Of a DNA stretch of 64,000 bases, positions 10,186 to 58,111 are shown piece by piece. The notes under the pieces were generated by a model. That model was not told the DNA's origin and searched no databases. It worked only from the letters and a program-made list of their open reading frames with translations. This DNA comes from an uncultured Thermoprotei archaeon (GTDB taxonomy: Archaea; Thermoproteota; Thermoprotei; Thermofilales; B15-G2), in the NCBI GenBank assembly GCA_965367815.1, contig CBDUKN010000007.1, positions 22,076 through 86,075 on the forward strand, read 5' to 3'. Both the position numbers and the translations under genes were made by a program. How positions within the stretch are numbered: position 1 is the stretch's first letter; each line of letters opens with the position of its first letter.

Positions 10186-10384
10186 TAAAAGAAGGCAAAA
10201 AGGGATTAATAGTTAAAGTAATCAAGGCTATCCCAGTAAAGCTAGATGAATTTGAAGTAGACTTGGTTTTTTGAACTAAATAACGTTTATTTTTCTCTCA
10301 ACCGCAACCTTTGCTTTAGCAAAACTACTTAAGCACCTAAAAAAGAGCCTAGTAAGCACTTATACTCTTAGAAGCGTTTACCTA

Positions 10385-22073: not shown

Positions 22074-22493
22074 GTGAGTAAAGTAAGCAAAGAATACATT
22101 AAAAGTGTTTTAAAGGAAATACAGGATGCTTTAGATGAACTAAAGACTATAACTAAATTTAGTGAATCTGATTTTATGTCTAGTAGAACACTTAGATTTT
22201 CAGCTAGATTCTCAATAATACAGATAGTAGAAGCTGCATCTGACCTAGGAATAGCAATACTCGAAAAAGACTTTTCGGAGACAGCTGAAAGCTATAGGGA
22301 AGTTTTTTCAAAACTAGCTTTGAAAGGAGTAATTAAATCTGAAACAGCCGAAGAGATGGAAAAAATAGCATCTCTAAGAAACATGATTATTCATAGATAC
22401 TGGAGAATTGATGATAGGAAAATATATAGAGATGCTATTTCGGGAAACTTTCGAGAGCGGTTATGTTTATTGTTTCTTGTTCCACCAATATAG
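22074..22493 (+). CDS. HEPN-domain protein (DUF86/HepT-like toxin), probably 3'-altered
   Basis: It has the Rx4H motif 'LRNMIIHRY'. The start is moved to in-frame GTG 22074 because the listed ORF start overlaps the divergent sulfatase gene. The last ~14 aa (RERLCLLFLVPPI) look atypical. Confidence 0.7.
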   Translation: MSKVSKEYIKSVLKEIQDALDELKTITKFSESDFMSSRTLRFSARFSIIQIVEAASDLGIAILEKDFSETAESYREVFSKLALKGVIKSETAEEMEKIASLRNMIIHRYWRIDDRKIYRDAISGNFRERLCLLFLVPPI

Positions 22494-22724
22494 GAGTCGA
22501 TACGGCACACCTATTAAGCTCTCCTCTACAACAATGATTACCGTATTTCCCGCCTTACTAATCCACGAGCCAAGCACCTTACCCTCTACCTTAAACTCCT
22601 TCGGCAACCTATACTCAAGCCACTCATCACTCCCTAAACAAGAACTCAAAGCCCATAAATCATGAATATAAATACTTAAATTAACATCAAGGTAAAATAC
22701 TTGGAGAGAGGTGGGGGGAGGGTT

Positions 22725-22780
22725 CTATTGCTTCTGAGACTAGTATTCCCCCGGCAGGGGGTTTGGTTTAGAAGCAATAG
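22725..22780. repeat. Nested GC-rich hairpin
   Basis: The outer stem is an 11-bp perfect pairing, ctattgcttct (22725-35) with agaagcaatag (22770-80). It encloses the hairpin CCCCC-ggca-GGGGG (22748-61). Confidence 0.6.
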
Positions 22781-23026
22781 GGCATTGGGCAATGAGTTCC
22801 GTGTCAGTCACTTACTTCTATTCATTCACTAATATACGAGTGAGGAAATAACTATTGCTTAAGCTTTGTCAAGGAAACTAATATACTGTATGGCTATTTA
22901 TGCAAACAGCTTATATATCTCTGAAACAACTATTACTTTAGATGACCCACTCTACCTCTAGGGTAGAGTAGCGATGAGGCGAGAGCCCTATGGCTCAGTG
23001 AGCCCCACCCCAGGCCCACAGCTACT

Positions 23027-23048
23027 AGAGCTACGTGGGGTGTCTCCC
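23027..23048. repeat. Left arm of the inverted repeat bracketing tnpB
   Basis: AGAGCTAcGTGgGGTGTCTCCC; the reverse complement of 24523-24543 reads AGAGCTA-GTGaGGTGTCTCCC. Confidence 0.85.
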
Positions 23049-23108
23049 CGGGATAGGGAAGGCAGGTGCCCCCCGCTACCATTCTTTACGGAGCGGTGGG
23101 GGTGTCTT

Positions 23109-24505
23109 GTGGGGCGAGAGGTAGAGGTTTTAAGAAGTAATATTTTGAGGATAATAGAGGATGAGAGTTTTTTAGAAGAGCTTAGGAAAGAATTTAAGAA
23201 ATACTTTGATACTGCAAATAAATTCATAGAACAGTATTATCGGGAAAACTGTAGGCTTCCTAGTGTTTTAGAAGTCTATAGAGTTCTTCGTAGAAATAGT
23301 GCTTTCAGTGTTATTTCCAGTGAAGTAGCTAGGAAGGTCCTAGAGGCTTGGAAATCTTATATTGAGCTTAAAAAGCGTGGCTATAAGGTTGAGAAGCCGG
23401 AATTTAGGAGGCCTTCAATTATTCTTCATAATCAGCAATACAGGATTTATGCTAAGAGGGAAAGTGATGGATGGTCAGTTGAGAAAATCGAGGTGAGGCT
23501 TAACAGGAAATGGATTTCAATTAAAGCTAGAGGGAAGCTTAGACGGATTCCAGTATTGGAGAGTGGTCTAGTATTTTACATTAATATTGATAGAAAACTA
23601 GTATATTTGAGACGCTACTTAACAGACAAATACTTGATTCTAGGAGAATACTGCACTAATAAAAATAAGGCGAGATTTTTCAGAGAAATAATAAGTGGTA
23701 TTTTGTTTTTAGTGTTTCTTTAAAGATTCCAGTGCTTAAGGGGGATGGTGTAGCGGGTGTAGATATTGGTGTAAGGAATCTTATAGCGCTTGTCGGAATT
23801 GACGGTGAAGGTGAGGCTTTTTCACTGTTGTTTAAGAGTGGTACCTTAAGGGCTTACTGGCTTAAAAACGAGAAGCTTGCTAGACGGAGACAGAAAATCG
23901 CTTACAAGTATTTCTGGGGAGCAGCAAAGTGTGCTGAAGAAGGTAATAGAGAAGAAGAGAAAGAGTTTTTCAGTAAATATGAATTGTATTTGAGGAAAGC
24001 AGGAAGGTTTAAGAAGAAGGCTAGGGAGGTTCGTAGGAAAGCGGTTAATCAGATGTGTCGATTGATTGCAGAGTTTCTTGTAGAGAAAGGTGTTTCAAGG
24101 GTGTTTGTTGGTAATTCGGTATGCTACTGTGTTAGTAGTGAAGAAGAAGTTAAGAAAGTTTCTAAGTCTACTAGAGAATTACTGCGCAACTTTTTTGCTT
24201 CCCGTCAAATCATTAATGCTCTTAAGCGGCACTGTGAGGTCAGGGGTATTAGAGTAATTGAGGTGAGTGAAGAGAATACTAGTAGTGTTTGTCCTGTGTG
24301 TGTTCAGAGGGTTGAGCGTCCTTATAGAGGGCTAGTAGTGTGTGAGAAATGTGGACAATTTAACGCGGATTTAAGTGCAGCATATAACATAATGAAGTTT
24401 AATAGTAGTGTCGAGTTAAGTGGTAAAGAGTTAAAAAGACTTCTCAATAATCCTAAAACATTCCTCTACCTTACTAAGGAACAGAAATGGATATCTAAAA
24501 ATTAA
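23109..24505 (+). pseudogene. tnpB: tnpB (RNA-guided nuclease family), frameshifted
   Basis: The N-terminal part is in the frame of ORF 22974..23723. The C-terminal part is in the frame of ORF 23732..24505 and is open from 23669 (..NNKWYFVFSVSLKIPVLKGDGVAGVDIGVRN..). RuvC-I is 'GVDIG', the zinc finger is 'CPVC..(15)..CEKCG', and RuvC-III is 'NADLSAAYNI'. The true start is uncertain (GTG 23109 or TTG 23145). Confidence 0.75.
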
Positions 24506-24640
24506 ATCTTTTTTACCCGATAGGGAGACACCTCACTAGCTCTCTCCGAAGAGGAGGGGTAACCCGCCTGACCCCCAGGCAGGCAATGAAGGGGCAAAAG
24601 CCCCCAAGCCGAAAGAGGGGTCTGGAGGCATATGTGCAAT
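24506..24640 (+). ncRNA. Candidate omega-RNA/right-end scaffold of the TnpB element
   Basis: A GC-rich block lies immediately 3' of the tnpB stop, with hairpins GCCTG-acccc-CAGGC (24566-80) and GGGGC-aaaa-GCCCC (24591-604). TnpB guide RNAs are known to derive from this position. Confidence 0.35.
24523..24543. repeat. Right arm of the inverted repeat bracketing tnpB
   Basis: gggagacacctcactagctct is complementary to 23027-23048, with one mismatch and one 1-nt indel. Confidence 0.85.
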
Positions 24641-24761
24641 AGAAAGATTTATGGAAGAGGTAAGAGAATATGTGTCTAAGGACTGTTGAGGAAAAGAAAA
24701 AGTTTACATTCTACAATATTAGCTTTAATTCTCGGAAAAAATTCTAGATAAAATAGCTCTT

Positions 24762-38997: not shown

Positions 38998-40584
38998 ATG
39001 TTAAGTAAATATTTGGACAAAGAATTTTTGTTAACTTTATTTATTCTAATTATTTTGCTTATAGAAATAATAGCATTATTTATACTACCTAGCTTTAAAG
39101 TAAAAAAGTTAACTAGAGAAGAATACTTAGCGAAAGCTATTGAAGCCTACGAGTGGATGATGCAGTTCCAGATAACTCCTCCCGGCACTCCATGGGGATG
39201 GCACCTGAACTGCAGAGACGCATGGGGAGGACTAGCAGGCTACTACACCAGACACTGCAAGTGGGCAGCAGTGTACGGTGCTGAAAGCTTCTATCAGCTC
39301 TACATAGCCTCACACGACGTAGGCTGGTTCTTGGAACTCGGAGTAGACCTATATAATATAACCGGCGAAGAAAAGTACCTTAAAGCTACTGAACTAGCAG
39401 CACAGTGGGCTCTCAGAATACAAGTAGGGTACAGTTCTTGGCTTAAAAAATTCGAAAAGCGCTACATTATGCCTCAAAAAAGTGAACGCAGTGTTAGCTG
39501 GAGATACGTTCCTGGTATAAAGTTTTCTAATGAGGTCATTGGAGCATACACTGAAGGAATGTTTGTTTTCAGCGGCGAACCACCATATCTTCATGATTGG
39601 AGTGAAGGAGTATGCTACGCTGAGCCAGCACTTTGGGTTGCGCCCGAGCATGTCATACCTATAGCTAAAGGTTTACTAAAACTATACTTAGCAACAAAGA
39701 ATAAAACATACTTAATGTCAGCTATGAGGGCACTCGACTTTATAGCTAGAATGCAGTCTCCTGAAGGCGGTATATACACGTGTTATCCTCCGAATGCCTA
39801 CGGAATTAGAATGAGTGATACAGCTAGTGCAGCTGAACTTTTCCTTTATGCCTACATAGTGGTAGGAAACAAAACTTATCTCGAAAGAGGACTTAAGGCA
39901 TGTGACTTCATGATAAGCAAGCAAGTAGCTTACGGCAGGTGGAGAGGAGTGCTGCCTCACTTGTCTACAGCTGGAGGTTCTTGGAGAAAACACAGTTATT
40001 TTACAGGCGACGCTGCTGAGGCTATTATAGCCTGGTTAAAAGCATATGAGCTTACGGGTGAATATAAGTATCTGGAGGCGGCTGTAAGAGCAGCTTACTT
40101 TCTTCTTAGAATGCAGGAAACAGACGCCAGTAAGCCTTGGGGTACTAAGATATATTCATGGGATAAGCGTGCAGTAGGAGGATTCTACTGGGCCTATGTG
40201 CCAGGCTACGGCATCTTGGAATACCAATTTGTTTCATCAACTACGTCAGCCGCCATAGCTTTACTCAAATTATACACTGTAGTCGAAGAACCTATTTTCT
40301 TAGAAAGCGTGAACTTGGCTTTAAAATGGCTTCTCGAGACAGAAATATATTCTCCTTCAAACACATACTTAGATCTTCCCGGCTTAACCGTAGTAAGCGA
40401 TCCTCACGGACTTTATAAAAGCGGATATGTCCCACTATACGGTAAGTATTACGATGAAATCCCCGGAACAATGACAGGAGACCCCGAGCAAGGCTTCTGT
40501 GTAGCAATGGCTGCCTCCGGTCCCTGCTACCTCTTCCTTGAAATATACAGATTATACCATAAAGTATATAATCAGCAGAAGTAG
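38998..40584 (+). CDS. Membrane-anchored extracellular alpha/alpha-toroid (prenyltransferase/terpene-cyclase-like repeat) protein
   Basis: It has an N-terminal TM anchor, then repeated 'RMQ/KQ..G.W/Y' units (RMQSPEGGIY, SKQVAYGRW, RMQETDASKPW). Its start is 1 nt after the upstream stop. Confidence 0.45.
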   Translation: MLSKYLDKEFLLTLFILIILLIEIIALFILPSFKVKKLTREEYLAKAIEAYEWMMQFQITPPGTPWGWHLNCRDAWGGLAGYYTRHCKWAAVYGAESFYQLYIASHDVGWFLELGVDLYNITGEEKYLKATELAAQWALRIQVGYSSWLKKFEKRYIMPQKSERSVSWRYVPGIKFSNEVIGAYTEGMFVFSGEPPYLHDWSEGVCYAEPALWVAPEHVIPIAKGLLKLYLATKNKTYLMSAMRALDFIARMQSPEGGIYTCYPPNAYGIRMSDTASAAELFLYAYIVVGNKTYLERGLKACDFMISKQVAYGRWRGVLPHLSTAGGSWRKHSYFTGDAAEAIIAWLKAYELTGEYKYLEAAVRAAYFLLRMQETDASKPWGTKIYSWDKRAVGGFYWAYVPGYGILEYQFVSSTTSAAIALLKLYTVVEEPIFLESVNLALKWLLETEIYSPSNTYLDLPGLTVVSDPHGLYKSGYVPLYGKYYDEIPGTMTGDPEQGFCVAMAASGPCYLFLEIYRLYHKVYNQQK

Positions 40585-42830: not shown

Positions 42831-44858
42831 ATGGTGGAGGAGACGAAAGTAAAAGAAGTAGAGGCTCTAAAAGTACTCAAATCACCGCGCCTCATAATCC
42901 TCTGGATTATAATTCTACTAGTATTCATCCCCTATCAAGCATTCAGACTCTATGGATGTTACGGCAACGGAACATCGTTCATGAGCCTAGTGCTCTTACT
43001 AACAGCTATAATCGGCTTATTTAGCAAGAAGTTTAAGCTATCACCTCAAGAAGCAACAATAGCCTTTGCCATAGCGACAGTAGCAGCTGATATCTCAATC
43101 TATACAGCTTTCTACGATAATCCACTATCAGGCATACCCTTCATTAACCTATATGGCGGACCAAACCTCGATAAAGTAAAGCAGTGGATACCTTCATGGA
43201 TGTTTATACCTACAGAAGTACTAGAGCCTGCCAGAAATGGTGGAGCAATGCTCCCACTAGGGCCGCTCTTACCAGTACTAGCTTTCTTAACAATATTCTT
43301 AATAGCACTCAAGTTGCTACAGCTAGCCACAGCAGGCATTATTGCAAGACAGTTTGTAGAAATAGAGCGCCTTCCATTCCCAGCCTTCATGCCAAGCCTC
43401 TACGTAATCAAATACTATTCCGAAGAAGTAGGAAAGAAGCCTAGACTACTATCATGGAAAGGCAACACTCCGTTCTGGCTGGGCTTCATCATAGGATTTC
43501 TAATAGATGCTATAGCTATTATGGAAGTATTTAGCGAAGCTGTCACAGGAAAAACCTACATACAGCTTCCTGCAAGCACAGGATTCATAGGACAGTTCGT
43601 AGTTGATCTAAGGTTCCTAGAACCGTACTTGCCGGGCGCAATGCTGTACTGGTATCCAGGACTAGACTTCGGTTTCTTCCCAGTCGCTCTCTTCTTGCCA
43701 TTAGATGTAATGGCTACGGCAATTCTATGGTTCTTCCTATGGTATATCTTCTATCCAGCAACAGTTAATATCCTTGGAATATATCCGACAAAAGTTACCG
43801 CAGGACAGCTAGGAGGAGGTGCTGTAGGAGCATGGCCATTTACATGGGTTGGTCAGATAGCAGTCCCATTTGCATTAGGCCTCTATCCACTAATATTTAG
43901 CTGGAGGTACTTCAGAGACTTCTTCAGAAAAGCTTTTAAGAGAACAGACCTCAATCCATCGCTCCCAGAAACTCTGCCAGTCTACACGGGTATTGTAGCT
44001 TTCATAATATTGCTAGCTCTGCTAGCGACTATAGGCATGCCAATAGTGCTAGCGTTTCTCTGGCTAATAGTTCTGACAATCTGTTGGACAGGTATGGCTA
44101 GAGTAGCAGGCGAATACTTCACTCAGCCACTGGCCTGGGCGTGGGGAGACCTCTACAGAGGATTCATGGGCTTCTCTCAGACAGTCATGGGCTGGCCTAA
44201 CCCCTATCCATCTAAAGAAGCATGGGGCACTATGATGGGCATGAGGCTGACTTACAATACTGTAGAAAGAGAGGTAGACAGCACATGGGGCTTCTTAGGC
44301 TGGTACAGGGTAGCGAGAGACACTAACACAAGCTGGAAAGCAGTCTATATAGCCCAGCTCGTAGCGGTAATTATTGGGGTAATTCTTGCCTGGCCAGCTA
44401 TCTACGGTCTAGCCTACTACAGAGGTCTTGAGGTAGGCTGGAACGGATACTTTACAGCTACATCCATCAGATACGCTGCTAGAAGATTTGTGGACTACGG
44501 TCTAGCAGGAACAGTAAATGCTATTAGTCCATGGAACATGCTAAAGATCGGATGGCTCTTTGGAGGCATCGTAATGGTCTTTGCTATAATGTGGCTTAGA
44601 CTCAGATTCCCATGGTTCTTCCTCAACCCAGTAGGTATGCTATGGCAACACCCATGGTGGCTTGGTGCAACTATGCTAGCTTTCGTTATAAAGTACATCG
44701 TTATCAAGGTGGGCGGTGCACAGGCTAATGAGAAATACTTAATACCCTTCGCTACCGGCTGGGCTTTCGGATCAGCTATAGGTGGACTAGTGACATACTG
44801 GCCCGAAAACATTTATAGAGCGTTCTTCAACAGACTCTTCCCGTACTTCTGGTGGTAA
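42831..44858 (+). CDS. Polytopic membrane protein, OPT/YSL-superfamily-like (Q1)
   Basis: The 675-aa protein has about 14-16 TM segments. 'EIERLPFPAF' aligns with 'EIEKLPFPIG' of the paralogue 49730..51664 and recalls the OPT/YSL 'KLTYPSGTATA' loop. Confidence 0.5.
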   Translation: MVEETKVKEVEALKVLKSPRLIILWIIILLVFIPYQAFRLYGCYGNGTSFMSLVLLLTAIIGLFSKKFKLSPQEATIAFAIATVAADISIYTAFYDNPLSGIPFINLYGGPNLDKVKQWIPSWMFIPTEVLEPARNGGAMLPLGPLLPVLAFLTIFLIALKLLQLATAGIIARQFVEIERLPFPAFMPSLYVIKYYSEEVGKKPRLLSWKGNTPFWLGFIIGFLIDAIAIMEVFSEAVTGKTYIQLPASTGFIGQFVVDLRFLEPYLPGAMLYWYPGLDFGFFPVALFLPLDVMATAILWFFLWYIFYPATVNILGIYPTKVTAGQLGGGAVGAWPFTWVGQIAVPFALGLYPLIFSWRYFRDFFRKAFKRTDLNPSLPETLPVYTGIVAFIILLALLATIGMPIVLAFLWLIVLTICWTGMARVAGEYFTQPLAWAWGDLYRGFMGFSQTVMGWPNPYPSKEAWGTMMGMRLTYNTVEREVDSTWGFLGWYRVARDTNTSWKAVYIAQLVAVIIGVILAWPAIYGLAYYRGLEVGWNGYFTATSIRYAARRFVDYGLAGTVNAISPWNMLKIGWLFGGIVMVFAIMWLRLRFPWFFLNPVGMLWQHPWWLGATMLAFVIKYIVIKVGGAQANEKYLIPFATGWAFGSAIGGLVTYWPENIYRAFFNRLFPYFWW

Positions 44859-56992: not shown

Positions 56993-58111
56993 ATGAGTGT
57001 GTCTTTAGATGCAATTAAAGAACTAGCGGAATCTATTCTTTATCCTCTAGAGCAGTATGTTCGGAGCAATATTTGCTGGGACCCTAATAGCCCCTACTAC
57101 GGCGGACTACTAGAGACTATCCCTCACACTCCTCAGCCTACATGGCCCCACGCCTCTTACGTGACTGCTGACGCCTACTTAAAGCTATATGAAGCCTACA
57201 GGAAACCCGAGTACTGGGAGGTAGCTAAAGTAATGGTAAATTATCTTGTTAGAGAGCAGAGCGACGCAGGTTGCTGGTATGGATATACTGGATATCCGAA
57301 GAGTTTTGGATGGAATGAGAAAAACGCGCCTCCTGGAAGTAAGCTAAATGTTGTTTTCGAAGACGGTACTGTTCTCGACATAATACGTGAGCCTTTTAGT
57401 ATTTTCGGGACAGTTCTTTACGGCAAAGTAGTAGTAAACGCCTATGAAGTAGCTGTTAAAAACAACTTAGACTTGAGCGAGGCCGAGCATTGGAGAATAT
57501 CTTTCCTTAAGGCAGCAGAGTTCGTGTGCCATATGATTGATAATAAGGGCTACTGGGTAGGCAACAGAGCGTGGAATCAGAGAGCTGCAGTAGCAGTACT
57601 ACTTTTTACTGCCAGTAGACTTTTATGTCCTGAACGGTACTTGAGAAAAGCTAAAATAGTACTAGACCAAATTCTGGAAGCACAGCTCGAGTCAGGCGAG
57701 TACCCCTACTCTGAGACAGGAGGCAGAACTTACCATTATCATGCTTTGACACTGTATTTTCTCAATCAAGTAAATAGAGAGTATCCGAGTAAACGCGTAG
57801 AAGAAGCTGTATTAAAAGGATTGAAGTGGATGTGGAGTATGCAGAAAGAAAACGGTGATTTTGACTGGAGTATACACTCACCTAAAGACCATAAAACAAG
57901 GCTGTTCTCGACATTTGGAATAGCTTTAGCTGCAACAGCACCTTACTTAAAGTTATTCAAAGAAAATGTTTACAAAACGCTAGTTTTCTTAAAGAAGCAC
58001 CAGAATCCAAATGGAGGTTTTCCGCGGAAAATAGGACTAGAGAAGACGGATAATGTCACATCAGGAGAGATTTTACACGGCTTAGCTGAGCTAGTTAAAG
58101 CCTTAGAATAG
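56993..58111 (+). CDS. Cytosolic alpha/alpha-toroid (prenyltransferase/squalene-cyclase-like repeat) protein
   Basis: It has five spaced Q/N..G.(W/F/Y) repeats (REQSDAGCW, IDNKGYW, AQLESGEYPY, MQKENGDFDW, HQNPNGGFP) and no signal peptide. Confidence 0.5.
   Translation: MSVSLDAIKELAESILYPLEQYVRSNICWDPNSPYYGGLLETIPHTPQPTWPHASYVTADAYLKLYEAYRKPEYWEVAKVMVNYLVREQSDAGCWYGYTGYPKSFGWNEKNAPPGSKLNVVFEDGTVLDIIREPFSIFGTVLYGKVVVNAYEVAVKNNLDLSEAEHWRISFLKAAEFVCHMIDNKGYWVGNRAWNQRAAVAVLLFTASRLLCPERYLRKAKIVLDQILEAQLESGEYPYSETGGRTYHYHALTLYFLNQVNREYPSKRVEEAVLKGLKWMWSMQKENGDFDWSIHSPKDHKTRLFSTFGIALAATAPYLKLFKENVYKTLVFLKKHQNPNGGFPRKIGLEKTDNVTSGEILHGLAELVKALE

Follow-up and report, generated by a model that had tools for sequence, protein, structure and literature searches.

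A decayed tnpB element in a HepT toxin gene of a Thermoprotei archaeon, with the probable remnant of an upstream structured RNA

Cas12 descends from TnpB elements, which are under development as compact genome editors. To our knowledge, TnpB is most abundant and least studied in hyperthermophile-type archaea, and its known RNA biology is limited to one omega-RNA at the 3' end, with which a group I intron competes in IStrons. The 64-kb stretch of DNA from an uncultured Thermoprotei archaeon that was analysed here (the window) contains a tnpB gene with a GC-rich block on each side and an inverted repeat around it. What kind of element is this, and what does its upstream block encode? A first-pass annotation had considered a transposon with terminal inverted repeats, a long-range RNA helix between the 5' and 3' blocks, and a 5' guide scaffold as in IscB.

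The two blocks annotated were present, with a GC content above 60% at 22938-23136 and 24513-24644 in a window of 39% GC overall. Of the GC islands compared across the 64 kb, these two alone were non-coding; the others in the comparison (39161-39274, 40461-40541, and 44117-44210) lay inside long ORFs, and a further small island stands at 57075-57155. Both hairpins described in the 5' block, one of 8 bp at 22949-69 and a stem at 23070-23102, were also found, and the ORF 'MRREPYGS...' (22974-23723) does run through this block, which is structured RNA and not coding. The ~21-nt inverted repeat was recovered with the following arms, A and x' being described below.

23027..23048, + strand: left repeat arm x, AGAGCTACGTGGGGTGTCTCCC; 5' strand of a long-range helix in A, whose partner x' is deleted in the window
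24523..24543, + strand: right repeat arm x''; opens the omega-RNA scaffold; paralogue of x' of A, extended by CCCCAC(TAG)

The arms flank tnpB as had been claimed but do not enclose it exactly, lying 61 nt before the GTG (23109) and 18 nt past the stop (24505). The core of the repeat was a gapless 14 bp (23035-48 and 24523-36), and blastn against the 64-kb window aligned 22 nt at 91% with an E value of ~0.03. The repeat alone is only moderately beyond chance, as shuffles of the 3' block reached 14-16 bp when G-U pairs were allowed.

The extent of the mobile unit was defined by comparing filled and empty alleles. In two near-identical empty-site contigs, L236 and L237, window position 22445 was joined straight to 24627, with a flank identity of 97-99%. 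Sample 3300022470 contains a filled allele (L006) as well as an empty one (L237). The same comparison could be made for L228, a relative inserted independently whose matching empty site is L234.

22446..24626, + strand: whole inserted unit, 2181 nt, within the HepT ORF; junction ambiguity of 3 nt (GGA); ends from empty-site contigs L236 and L237
22446..22611, + strand: left-most segment of the insert, 166 nt; no relative at any other locus (blastn and tblastn against all loci returned the window's own copies only)
22612..22939, + strand: left arm common to other copies; within it are a terminal segment (22612-22700), the RNA A promoter region, and, between the two, the 'C' hairpin
22722..22783, + strand: structured 'C' hairpin, 62 nt, with G-U pairs on the + strand; 25 pairs, 2 of them compensatory in the alignment of the window with L135; also in L228

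This is a mobile unit with defined ends, which lies in the sense orientation relative to the HepT toxin gene that it interrupts; L228 is antisense to the gene it entered. The right end of L228, seen against L234, was the same as that of the window (...GGGGTC). The local alignment of the window with L228 began at CTTCnnnAACC, immediately 5' of TATACTCAAGCC, and the CTTCTTAAACC part is host sequence in L228; hence the left end of the element there corresponds to window position 22612. The CTTCnnnAACC motif preceded the homologous left end in two loci only. Blastn matches to 22612-22939 were obtained in L228, L135, L130, L002, and L004, and the 60-aa minus-strand ORF of 22446-22611 had no Pfam match. 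The repeat arms stand 581 nt (left) and 83 nt (right) from the insert ends, and the ends derived from L228 and L234 likewise do not coincide with the inverted repeat. A TTAC at 22933-36, proposed as a reminder of IS608-type target sites, does exist, but a role as target site is not supported: it is internal to the element, downstream of the TATA box and upstream of the RNA start, and other loci differ there (ATTAT in L001, ATAC in L002). The window junctions read TC(G/T)GGA with a flanking repeat of 3-6 nt; those of L228 read TTCTTAAA(C/T)C, with a flanking repeat of 10 nt and a 22-nt tandem duplicate of the target. Neither blastn nor the nhmmer profile of A detected a further copy of the element within the 64-kb window. 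A Y1 (HUH) TnpA was absent from the element, whose sole long ORFs are two tnpB fragments, and TnpA was likewise not found in the other loci. For the divergent ORFs of 209 and 216 aa upstream of A in L001 and L003, homology was too faint to be claimed, and Pfam gave no match.

23109..24505, + strand: tnpB pseudogene; GTG start, frameshift at ~23669-23684, RuvC D-E-D, CxxC..CxxC zinc finger

The designation as a TnpB-only element was borne out by matches to PF07282 (E = 1e-12) and PF01385 (E = 9e-8), both above the curated cut-offs (Cas12f1-like TNB and OrfB_IS605). The catalytic and zinc motifs GVDIG, S(E/R)E(E/D), NADL, and CPVC...CEKC were present, and the RuvC-II glutamate aligned to MEDL of Cas12f 9nzq. 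The ORF is not intact in the window, two frames being needed to read it, a point that the first-pass annotation had missed. Since the same frameshift was seen independently in L006 and L007, an assembly error is unlikely. The gene is intact in the relatives L001, L002, L130, and L190. The TnpB proteins of this clade are ~60 aa longer than typical TnpBs. The clade stands apart, the closest TnpBs outside it being ~30% identical.

24516..24622, + strand: B, omega-RNA scaffold, conserved in 7 distinct loci with compensatory pairs; it consists of x'' (24523-24543), a variable hairpin, GCCTG..CAGGC (24566-24580), GGGGC..GCCCC (24591-24604), and the 3' end GAGGGGTC
24623..24642, + strand: putative guide segment; its last 16 nt are host HepT sequence

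The 3' block had been read as a guide RNA scaffold, and its conserved structure, sharp 3' boundary, and locus-variable flank agree with that reading. Conservation of B ended sharply after GGGG(G)TC, at a boundary corresponding to 24622, and each of seven distinct elements had a different flank immediately behind the scaffold. By these features the 3' block appears to be a standard omega-RNA scaffold, and by analogy with other TnpB elements we infer that 24623-24642 would act as the guide. No second match to the window guide was found in the 64 kb, and scans of viral contigs gave 0 matches either to the spacer or to the B motif. Scans of genomes and metagenomes with 17-nt patterns returned mostly chance matches, for example in Collinsella; the relevant loci were picked by blastn.

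22911..22918, + strand: TATA-like box TTATATAT, ~26 nt upstream of the GC-rich RNA start
22940..23109, + strand: A', truncated 5' half of RNA A, detected with the nhmmer profile of A; P1 hairpin at 22949-22969

The 5' block was conserved upstream of tnpB in related loci, where it is part of a longer RNA, A. With an nhmmer profile of 359 positions, the window copy matched positions 1-186 (E = 2.7e-38). Matches were found only directly upstream of tnpB of one small Thermoprotei clade, and within this clade at every locus whose upstream region was recovered; the long form was present in L001, L002/L130, L003, L004, and L005. About six distinct sequences of A exist, and seven of B. The consensus structure of A has 95 pairs, 22 of which were changed on both sides, compared with 2-8 when the partners were slid; 94% of the cells were paired, compared with 40-56% when slid, and none of 500 shuffles reached the observed values. 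Many of the G-U pairs are possible on the + strand only. The 5' end of A, (A/G)GATGACC, was conserved across loci and begins 495 nt inside the insert, and the spacing of the TATA-like box was the same in L001, L002, L003, and L004. This box is probably an archaeal promoter, the transcription start and the RNA ends of A being predicted. The pattern of pair conservation argues that A is a real structured RNA of the + strand, ~350 nt long and tied to this TnpB clade.

Rfam 15 gave no match in the window at the gathering score, and permissive scans of the window region (E <= 10) and of L001 and L002 (E <= 1) returned chance-level matches only; a tRNA scan found none. In our literature searches, an RNA encoded on the 5' side of tnpB was nowhere described. 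The RNA of the 5' block is new and belongs to a rare archaeal element. It does resemble the omega-RNA of IscB (HEARO RNA) in being a large structured RNA encoded 5' of the nuclease gene. In IscB, however, the guide is at the 5' end of the RNA, at the left boundary, whereas the 5' end of A and its TATA box are conserved, the variable segment comes only after B, and the protein here is TnpB; the proposal of a 5' guide scaffold is accordingly not supported.

The element shares with TnpB-only members of IS200/IS605 (ISDra2 TnpB, IS1341-type) the RuvC D-E-D triad with a zinc finger, an RNA scaffold from the 3' end of tnpB that stops sharply at the right end and takes its guide from the flank, and a unit devoid of a transposase gene for which filled and empty alleles both exist. 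It differs from them in its very long left end (~660 nt in the window and longer in the long forms), which appears to encode a separately promoted ~350-nt RNA complementary to the omega-RNA, in the short flanking repeats at its junctions, which are not typical of the family, and in the isolation of its clade. The feature at 22446-24626 is a decayed non-autonomous IS200/IS605-like tnpB element, sense-inserted in a HepT toxin gene.

How the window copy decayed can be seen from the intact relatives, whose parts are arranged in the following order.

Parts 1 and 2: TATA promoter, then A (~350 nt, + strand, highly structured)
Part 3: AT-rich spacer, ~110 nt, conserved; probably the tnpB promoter
Part 4: leader hairpin, ~75 nt, whose 3' strand contains the GTG start
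Parts 5 to 7: tnpB, then the omega-RNA scaffold B (~105 nt), then the guide, which is flanking DNA
In the window, 23070..23102, + strand: hybrid hairpin H at the junction of a ~345-nt deletion, in which H_A (in A) is fused with the similar H_L (in the tnpB leader)

In L001, the two hairpins at 2618-2650 and 2964-2995 lie 346 nt apart and are 88% identical over 33 nt; the window, L135, and L228 each have a single fused H. The ~345 nt were probably removed when two such ~88%-identical 33-nt hairpins, one in A and one in the leader, recombined or slipped, and with them went the spacer and the halves of A and of the leader that adjoin it, 3' and 5' respectively. The three short-form copies were not monophyletic in the tnpB tree, and tnpB was frameshifted in all three. 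The same deletion arose in two loci, L135 and L228, that do not group with the window in this tree. The 5' block is the surviving 5' half of A fused to the tnpB leader, and the window copy is a relic. Every oddity in the first reading of this locus can be explained as the wreck of such an element. Considered jointly, the insertion ends, the relic status, a real clade-specific RNA A, and B as omega-RNA scaffold make up an account that we consider probable.

The leader hairpin directly upstream of tnpB (CCTCCCGCCCC...GTGGGGCGGGAGG) holds the GTG start within its 3' strand. The stem-loop in the 5' UTR of IS200 tnpA sequesters the ribosome-binding site. The present hairpin is similar in holding the start codon of its gene; it differs in that the gene is tnpB and not tnpA, that the host is archaeal, and that the window copy has lost half of the hairpin. 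The tnpB leader contains the motif GGGGGUGUCU.

With the long form of A at hand, the inverted repeat could be placed in its context. In intact relatives the left arm belongs primarily to a helix within A: consensus helix 7, with 12 pairs of which 3 were changed on both sides, has x as its 5' strand and x' as its 3' strand. The pairing of x with x'' was present in all seven loci compared; in L002, L004, and L005 its 14-15 bp were free of mismatches. An indel co-varied in L002/L130, that of L002 occurring in x, x', and x'', and in L005 x was perfect against x'' and bulged against x'. The predicted duplex energies were -36 to -45 kcal/mol for x:x'' and -27 to -32 kcal/mol for x:x'. In L228, a decayed copy, x:x'' had an uncompensated mismatch and a bulge. 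A second complementarity, of 17-27 bp, was found between y, the hairpin of the 3' tail of A, and y'', a hairpin of B; in L004, y and y'' had each changed so as to keep their own hairpins, which breaks the intermolecular pairing. Pairing was measured by gapless helix counts and short-segment duplexes, as RNAduplex of whole A against whole B was uninformative because of inflated interior loops. No bulge-helix-bulge motif was seen in the x:x'' duplex when checked by eye. The long-range 5'/3' RNA helix proposed earlier is plausible, its arm pair co-varying and being predicted to be stabler than the competing internal helix. The distinct sequences are few (~6 of A and 7 of B), so the covariation of x:x'' comes down to a single indel event plus a few changes that preserve wobble pairs. 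Both x and y sit in well-supported internal helices of A, and hence the complementarity could be a by-product of modular duplication. From these sequence comparisons, the proposed interaction between A and the omega-RNA may occur, though we consider it, on its own, rather less likely than not.

How such an interaction might work can be outlined as follows. In active copies, TnpB with B and the guide would cut empty sites, as other TnpB elements do. A would be an element-encoded partner RNA, in which x could swap x' for the 5' end of the omega-RNA and the 3' hairpin y could likewise swap its partner, less strictly, whether in trans or within a read-through transcript. The effect of this exchange would be to couple or to antagonise the folding of the omega-RNA and the expression of tnpB. 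The window copy would be a fossil in which x:x'' is the sole surviving pairing. In its full form this proposal would make A a new class of transposon-encoded TnpB partner RNA, ~350 nt long and separately promoted, that binds the omega-RNA by strand exchange (x moving from x' to x'', y from its own partner to y'') and serves either as an anti-omega-RNA switch governing both the activity of the nuclease and the translation of tnpB or as a co-scaffold of the tracrRNA type; we regard it as speculative and unlikely. If it were true, this archaeal TnpB clade would be a natural two-RNA system and a possible intermediate on the way from omega-RNA to tracrRNA:crRNA. If the left end carried a second conserved structured RNA with a promoter of its own, control of TnpB would gain a further layer, or a step would have been taken towards split guide RNAs; the present RNA has an apparently co-varying complementarity to the segment with which the omega-RNA begins. 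More modestly, the window itself records a polymorphic insertion by which a HepT toxin gene was inactivated.

The strongest of the rival explanations grants the complementarity of the two blocks but gives it no role in pairing: when the element was put together, paralogous modules of A would have been copied into x'' and part of y'', or in the opposite direction, with their likeness kept by gene conversion or by binding of a common protein, and A would be an independent RNA of the left end, either a passenger or a regulator. The 5' segment of B indeed resembles x' of A in direct orientation over ~16 nt, and because A and the tnpB leader have hairpin H and the GGGGUGUCU motif in common, the element is visibly built of repeated modules. 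The covariation that supports the internal helices of A containing x, and the hairpins that L004 kept at the cost of the complementarity of y and y'', point the same way. On the other hand, x'' adds 5-6 nt (CCCCAC) complementary to x that x' lacks, and the perfect fit of x to x'' but not to x' in L005 and the threefold indel of L002 also speak against it. A single inverted duplication does not explain both pairs, since x/x'' and y/y'' do not form collinear inverted copies of the same segment. We judge modular copying to be rather unlikely.

The other part of the partner-RNA proposal can also be taken alone, with A as a tracrRNA-like co-scaffold, B as a crRNA-like repeat with guide, and TnpB requiring both RNAs, an arrangement intermediate between omega-RNA and the tracrRNA:crRNA of Cas12. 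Like the tracrRNA:crRNA of Cas12f, Cas12b, and Cas12e, this would be a separate structured RNA beside the nuclease gene with two-part complementarity to the guide RNA; the two parts (x:x'' 14-25 bp and y:y'' 17-27 bp) flank the variable hairpin of B. The restriction of A to the TnpB clade of the window element and the additional ~60 aa of its proteins would also be in keeping with it. However, a CRISPR array is lacking, A far exceeds known tracrRNAs in size, and B by itself folds into a complete and conserved scaffold as large as a typical omega-RNA. The strands of A that could act as 'anti-repeat' are taken up by its own conserved internal helices, the y'' pairing would unfold a hairpin of B that compensatory change has kept, and y is wholly lost in the short-form copies. 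A co-scaffold role is accordingly improbable.

CdiIStron and CboIStron are IS605/IS607 elements with a group I intron as their left end. In IStrons, a large structured RNA at the left end is followed by tnpB and a right-end omega-RNA, with mutually exclusive alternative pairings (bioRxiv 10.1101/2023.11.20.567912). The present architecture is alike, its alternative pairings being predicted, and the window copy stands in sense orientation inside an ORF; A and the 3' block might thus form a self-splicing intron that frees the HepT transcript of the element. Against this, no Rfam group I or II intron was matched at E <= 10 in the window region or at E <= 1 in L001 and L002, and the predicted fold of A is a nested rod with no P3-P7-type pseudoknot. 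A has its own TATA box and starts well inside the element, which is archaeal, and insertions occur in either orientation to host genes, as the antisense L228 shows. The insert ends in ...GGGGTC(TGGA), with a terminal C and not the G of group I introns, a point weakened by the 3-nt junction ambiguity. We consider splicing very improbable.

Still less credible is a TnpB transposon with terminal inverted repeats, for which the 21-nt repeat around tnpB would speak: the empty sites place the ends at 22446 and 24626 and the arms inside the element, conservation among copies reaches far outside both arms, and no inverted repeat was noticed by eye at the insert termini. This reading was refuted by the empty-site comparison.

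Practically no credence remains for a host structural RNA gene, such as that of SRP RNA or RNase P RNA, split by tnpB into two GC-rich halves: the blocks do total ~300 nt, their pairing does bracket tnpB, and in an AT-rich thermophile GC islands mark RNA genes, but there was no Rfam match, the empty sites, by which this candidate was rejected, contain neither block and are HepT coding sequence, and both blocks accompany tnpB at every locus.

The feature is a dead TnpB insertion sequence, in itself an ordinary kind of object; it belongs to an undescribed variant, in which the left end codes for a large structured RNA with complementarity to the element's own guide RNA. Neither Rfam nor the literature searched yielded a description of such a left-end RNA variant. 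The gene was located as follows.

23109 (GTG) to stop 24505, + strand: tnpB, split by a frameshift near 23669-23684

The first-pass annotation had identified this gene as tnpB, and Pfam (PF07282 and PF01385) agreed. The protein retains the catalytic D-E-D residues and the zinc finger, and its RuvC-II glutamate aligned to MEDL in a solved Cas12f. Its clade is very small and isolated: a word-indexed search gave 8 proteins, and an exhaustive search gave one full-length 50%-identity cluster and fragments, after which the next relatives fell to ~30% identity. All sources were Thermoprotei MAGs or JGI/ENA metagenome contigs, Guaymas Basin being indicated by one MAG scaffold name (B15_Guay2). Contigs were obtained for most clade members; these loci carry L-numbers below.

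An inverted repeat enclosing tnpB exactly had been described, and a TIR transposon considered. The repeat was indeed present (arms 23035-48 and 24523-36, 14 nt at 93%, extending to 22 nt at 91% when one indel is included). The arms enclosed tnpB, but not exactly, lying 61 nt before the start and 18 nt after the stop. In loci L236 and L237 the element was absent, the flanks were 97-99% identical to those of the window, and the host sequence ran from ...GCTATTTCGGGA directly into GGCATATGTG..., the junction broken in the window by 22446-24626. With the insertion ends defined by these empty sites, the repeat arms lie 581 nt and 83 nt inward, which excludes them as terminal repeats; this is the outcome that the annotation itself had named as refuting a TIR transposon. 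A TTAC at 22933-36, likened to a target site, was unconserved and fell between a TATA box and the RNA start.

The overall GC content of the window was 39%, and tnpB was flanked by two blocks exceeding 60% GC in an 80-nt sliding window, 22938-23136 and 24513-24644. Four other islands exceeded this threshold (39161-39274, 40461-40541, 44117-44210, and 57075-57155); the first three, which were checked against ORFs, all lay within long ones. The hairpins named in the annotation were found in the sequence. Searches for Rfam families and tRNA found none. Upstream of tnpB, loci L001, L002/L130, L003, L004, and L005 shared a four-part layout, hereafter the long form.

Upstream layout of tnpB, 5' to 3'
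Part 1: TATA-like box
Part 2: RNA A, GC-rich, ~350 nt, beginning ~26 nt past the TATA-like box
Part 3: AT-rich spacer, ~110 nt
Part 4: leader hairpin, ~75 nt, with the GTG start codon in its 3' strand

The spacer was better conserved than tnpB itself (86%, L004 vs L003). The secondary structure of A, read on the + strand, comprised 14 helices and 95 pairs. In the consensus, paired cells reached 94%, compared with 40-56% when the 3' partners were slid, and both-side changes occurred in 22 pairs, compared with 2-8; none of 500 shuffles attained these values. Furthermore, many G-U pairs become C-A mismatches if the opposite strand is read. A profile of A matched the window at 22940-23109 (profile positions 1-186 of 359, E = 2.7e-38), with no second match elsewhere in the window, and across the loci its sole matches were immediately 5' of tnpB genes of this clade. 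A thus exists as a structured RNA linked exclusively to this clade, and is presumably transcribed from its own TATA box.

Several further features were observed in this region. The A of L003 (3487-3832) kept its ends, central hairpin, and 3' hairpin; its 5' half was very different, with large insertions and no recognisable left repeat arm, and the omega-RNA lay beyond the contig end. The tnpB leader forms a long hairpin (L001 2940-3020, L002 527-607, L003 3940-4015) with the GTG start codon inside the 3' strand, CCTCCCGCCCC...GTGGGGCGGGAGG, and looks like a translational control element; the window keeps its 3' half alone. Upstream of A's promoter, in the left arm, a conserved 62-nt hairpin preceded by GGAGAGAGGTGGGGGGAGGG was found at 22722-22783 and also in L135 and L228, with G-U pairs on the + strand and two compensatory pairs.

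The window carries a short form of this layout. The break point is a hairpin, which reads CCCCCGCTACC..GGAGCGATGGGGG in the A copy; 346 nt further downstream, the leader carries a paralogous copy of this 33-nt hairpin that is 88% identical. The window has a single fused copy (23070-23102), indicating a loss of ~345 nt that took away the 3' half of A and the spacer along with the 5' half of the leader. A similar fusion was found in L135 and in L228, an element also represented by L182 and L022. These three copies did not group together in the tnpB tree; therefore, the deletion recurred. A frameshift accompanied each occurrence of the deletion, in lineages that are not sisters (vs L001, L002, L004, L005): tnpB was frameshifted in all three short forms. 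Among the long forms it was intact in L001, L002, L130, and L190, and in L003 up to the contig's edge, and frameshifted in L004 and L005. By deletion and frameshift, the window copy is a relic.

The structure 3' of tnpB, B, had a fold conserved in seven distinct sequences.

Elements of the B fold
Variable first hairpin
Hairpin GCCUG..CAGGC
Hairpin with compensatory changes
3' end GAAAGAGGGG(G)UC

Directly past this 3' end, the seven loci were wholly divergent. In TnpB systems the scaffold is followed by a guide derived from the flank. B is the omega-RNA scaffold, and the flank is expected to act as the guide.

The two RNAs are complementary. Helix 7 of A is a long-range pairing of 12 pairs between the left repeat arm (x) and a segment within A (x'), with both-side changes in 3; x' was deleted from the window. 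The omega-RNA opens with the right arm (x''), which is similar to x' (CCCG.U.GGGAGACAC) and is extended by CCCCAC(UAG), making it a contiguous complement of x. The x:x'' duplex was perfect in L002, L004, and L005 (14-15 bp); in L001, the window, and L135 it spanned 12-14 bp, one of them G-U, and in L228, a decayed copy, it was damaged. In L002/L130, x, x', and x'' shared a 1-nt deletion; in L005, x matched x'' perfectly, whereas its pairing with x' was bulged. Predicted duplex energies in the same loci were -36 to -45 kcal/mol for x:x'' and -27 to -32 kcal/mol for x:x', and the L002 cognate pair outdid non-cognate pairs among predicted duplexes. The x:x'' pairing is conserved. The evidence was weaker for a second complementarity of 17-27 bp, between the 3' hairpin and tail of A and a hairpin of B; in L004 each side was altered to save its own hairpin, breaking the mutual pairing.

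In addition, GGGGGUGUCU in the tnpB leader, beside the start codon, is complementary to x' and x''. Counting x, x', and x'', the element holds this pairing module four times, twice as "plus" and twice as "minus", a layout inviting a hypothetical switch model. The main rival explanation is that the complementarity between A and the omega-RNA is a by-product of modular duplication. Our preferred mechanism is that A, encoded by the element, would serve the omega-RNA as a partner or oppose it as an antagonist, any interaction between the two being putative. A natural two-RNA TnpB system seems unlikely. The closest functional analogue of the antagonism would be the IStron, in which intron and omega-RNA are antagonistic (bioRxiv 10.1101/2023.11.20.567912). 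Unlike an IStron intron, A has a putative promoter of its own and is not detectable as a group I intron, and the L228 copy is inserted antisense to its target gene.

The insertion in the window lies in the interior of a HepT toxin ORF (22074-22445 + 24627-24689), on the same strand. One metagenome (JGI sample 3300022470) holds both the filled (L006) and the empty (L237) allele; this coexistence, with 97-99% identical flanks, indicates that the insertion is polymorphic. It is probably recent, despite the short form and frameshift already present. The adjacent MNT antitoxin gene (24670-~25132) lacks one nucleotide after 24735 and another after 24991 when compared with L236/L237; as HepT is interrupted too, the entire HepT-MNT module is dead in this strain. 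The L228 copy, an independent insertion, has an epimerase gene on one side and an mdh gene on the other; only 38 nt separate the two genes in the empty-site contig L234. Its right end is likewise ...GGGGTC, and its left end is equivalent to window position 22612, which also leaves the repeat arms inside the element. For the extra 166 nt in the window (22446-22611), no relative was found anywhere among the loci; this left edge, containing a 60-aa minus-strand ORF without a Pfam match, may be flanking sequence brought along from a previous insertion site, or else a left end particular to this lineage.

In L228 (6900-6935, 9030-9045), the 3' end of the host epimerase gene is duplicated in tandem over 22 nt beside the element's right end, and TTCTTAAA(C/T)C flanks the element on either side. 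In L001/L208 (L208 ~10260-10300), a 117-aa ORF has a 15-nt tandem duplicate (YYFKK YYFKK) at its 3' end. These two insertions were independent; each struck ...TTTAAGAAG at a gene 3' end and duplicated the target. Every gene upstream in L001 (388-2442) and L003 (370-3448) was an ORFan, and none had a credible Pfam match, a hint that these long-form copies occupy a mobile or viral region; the contexts of L135 and L228, by contrast, are chromosomal.
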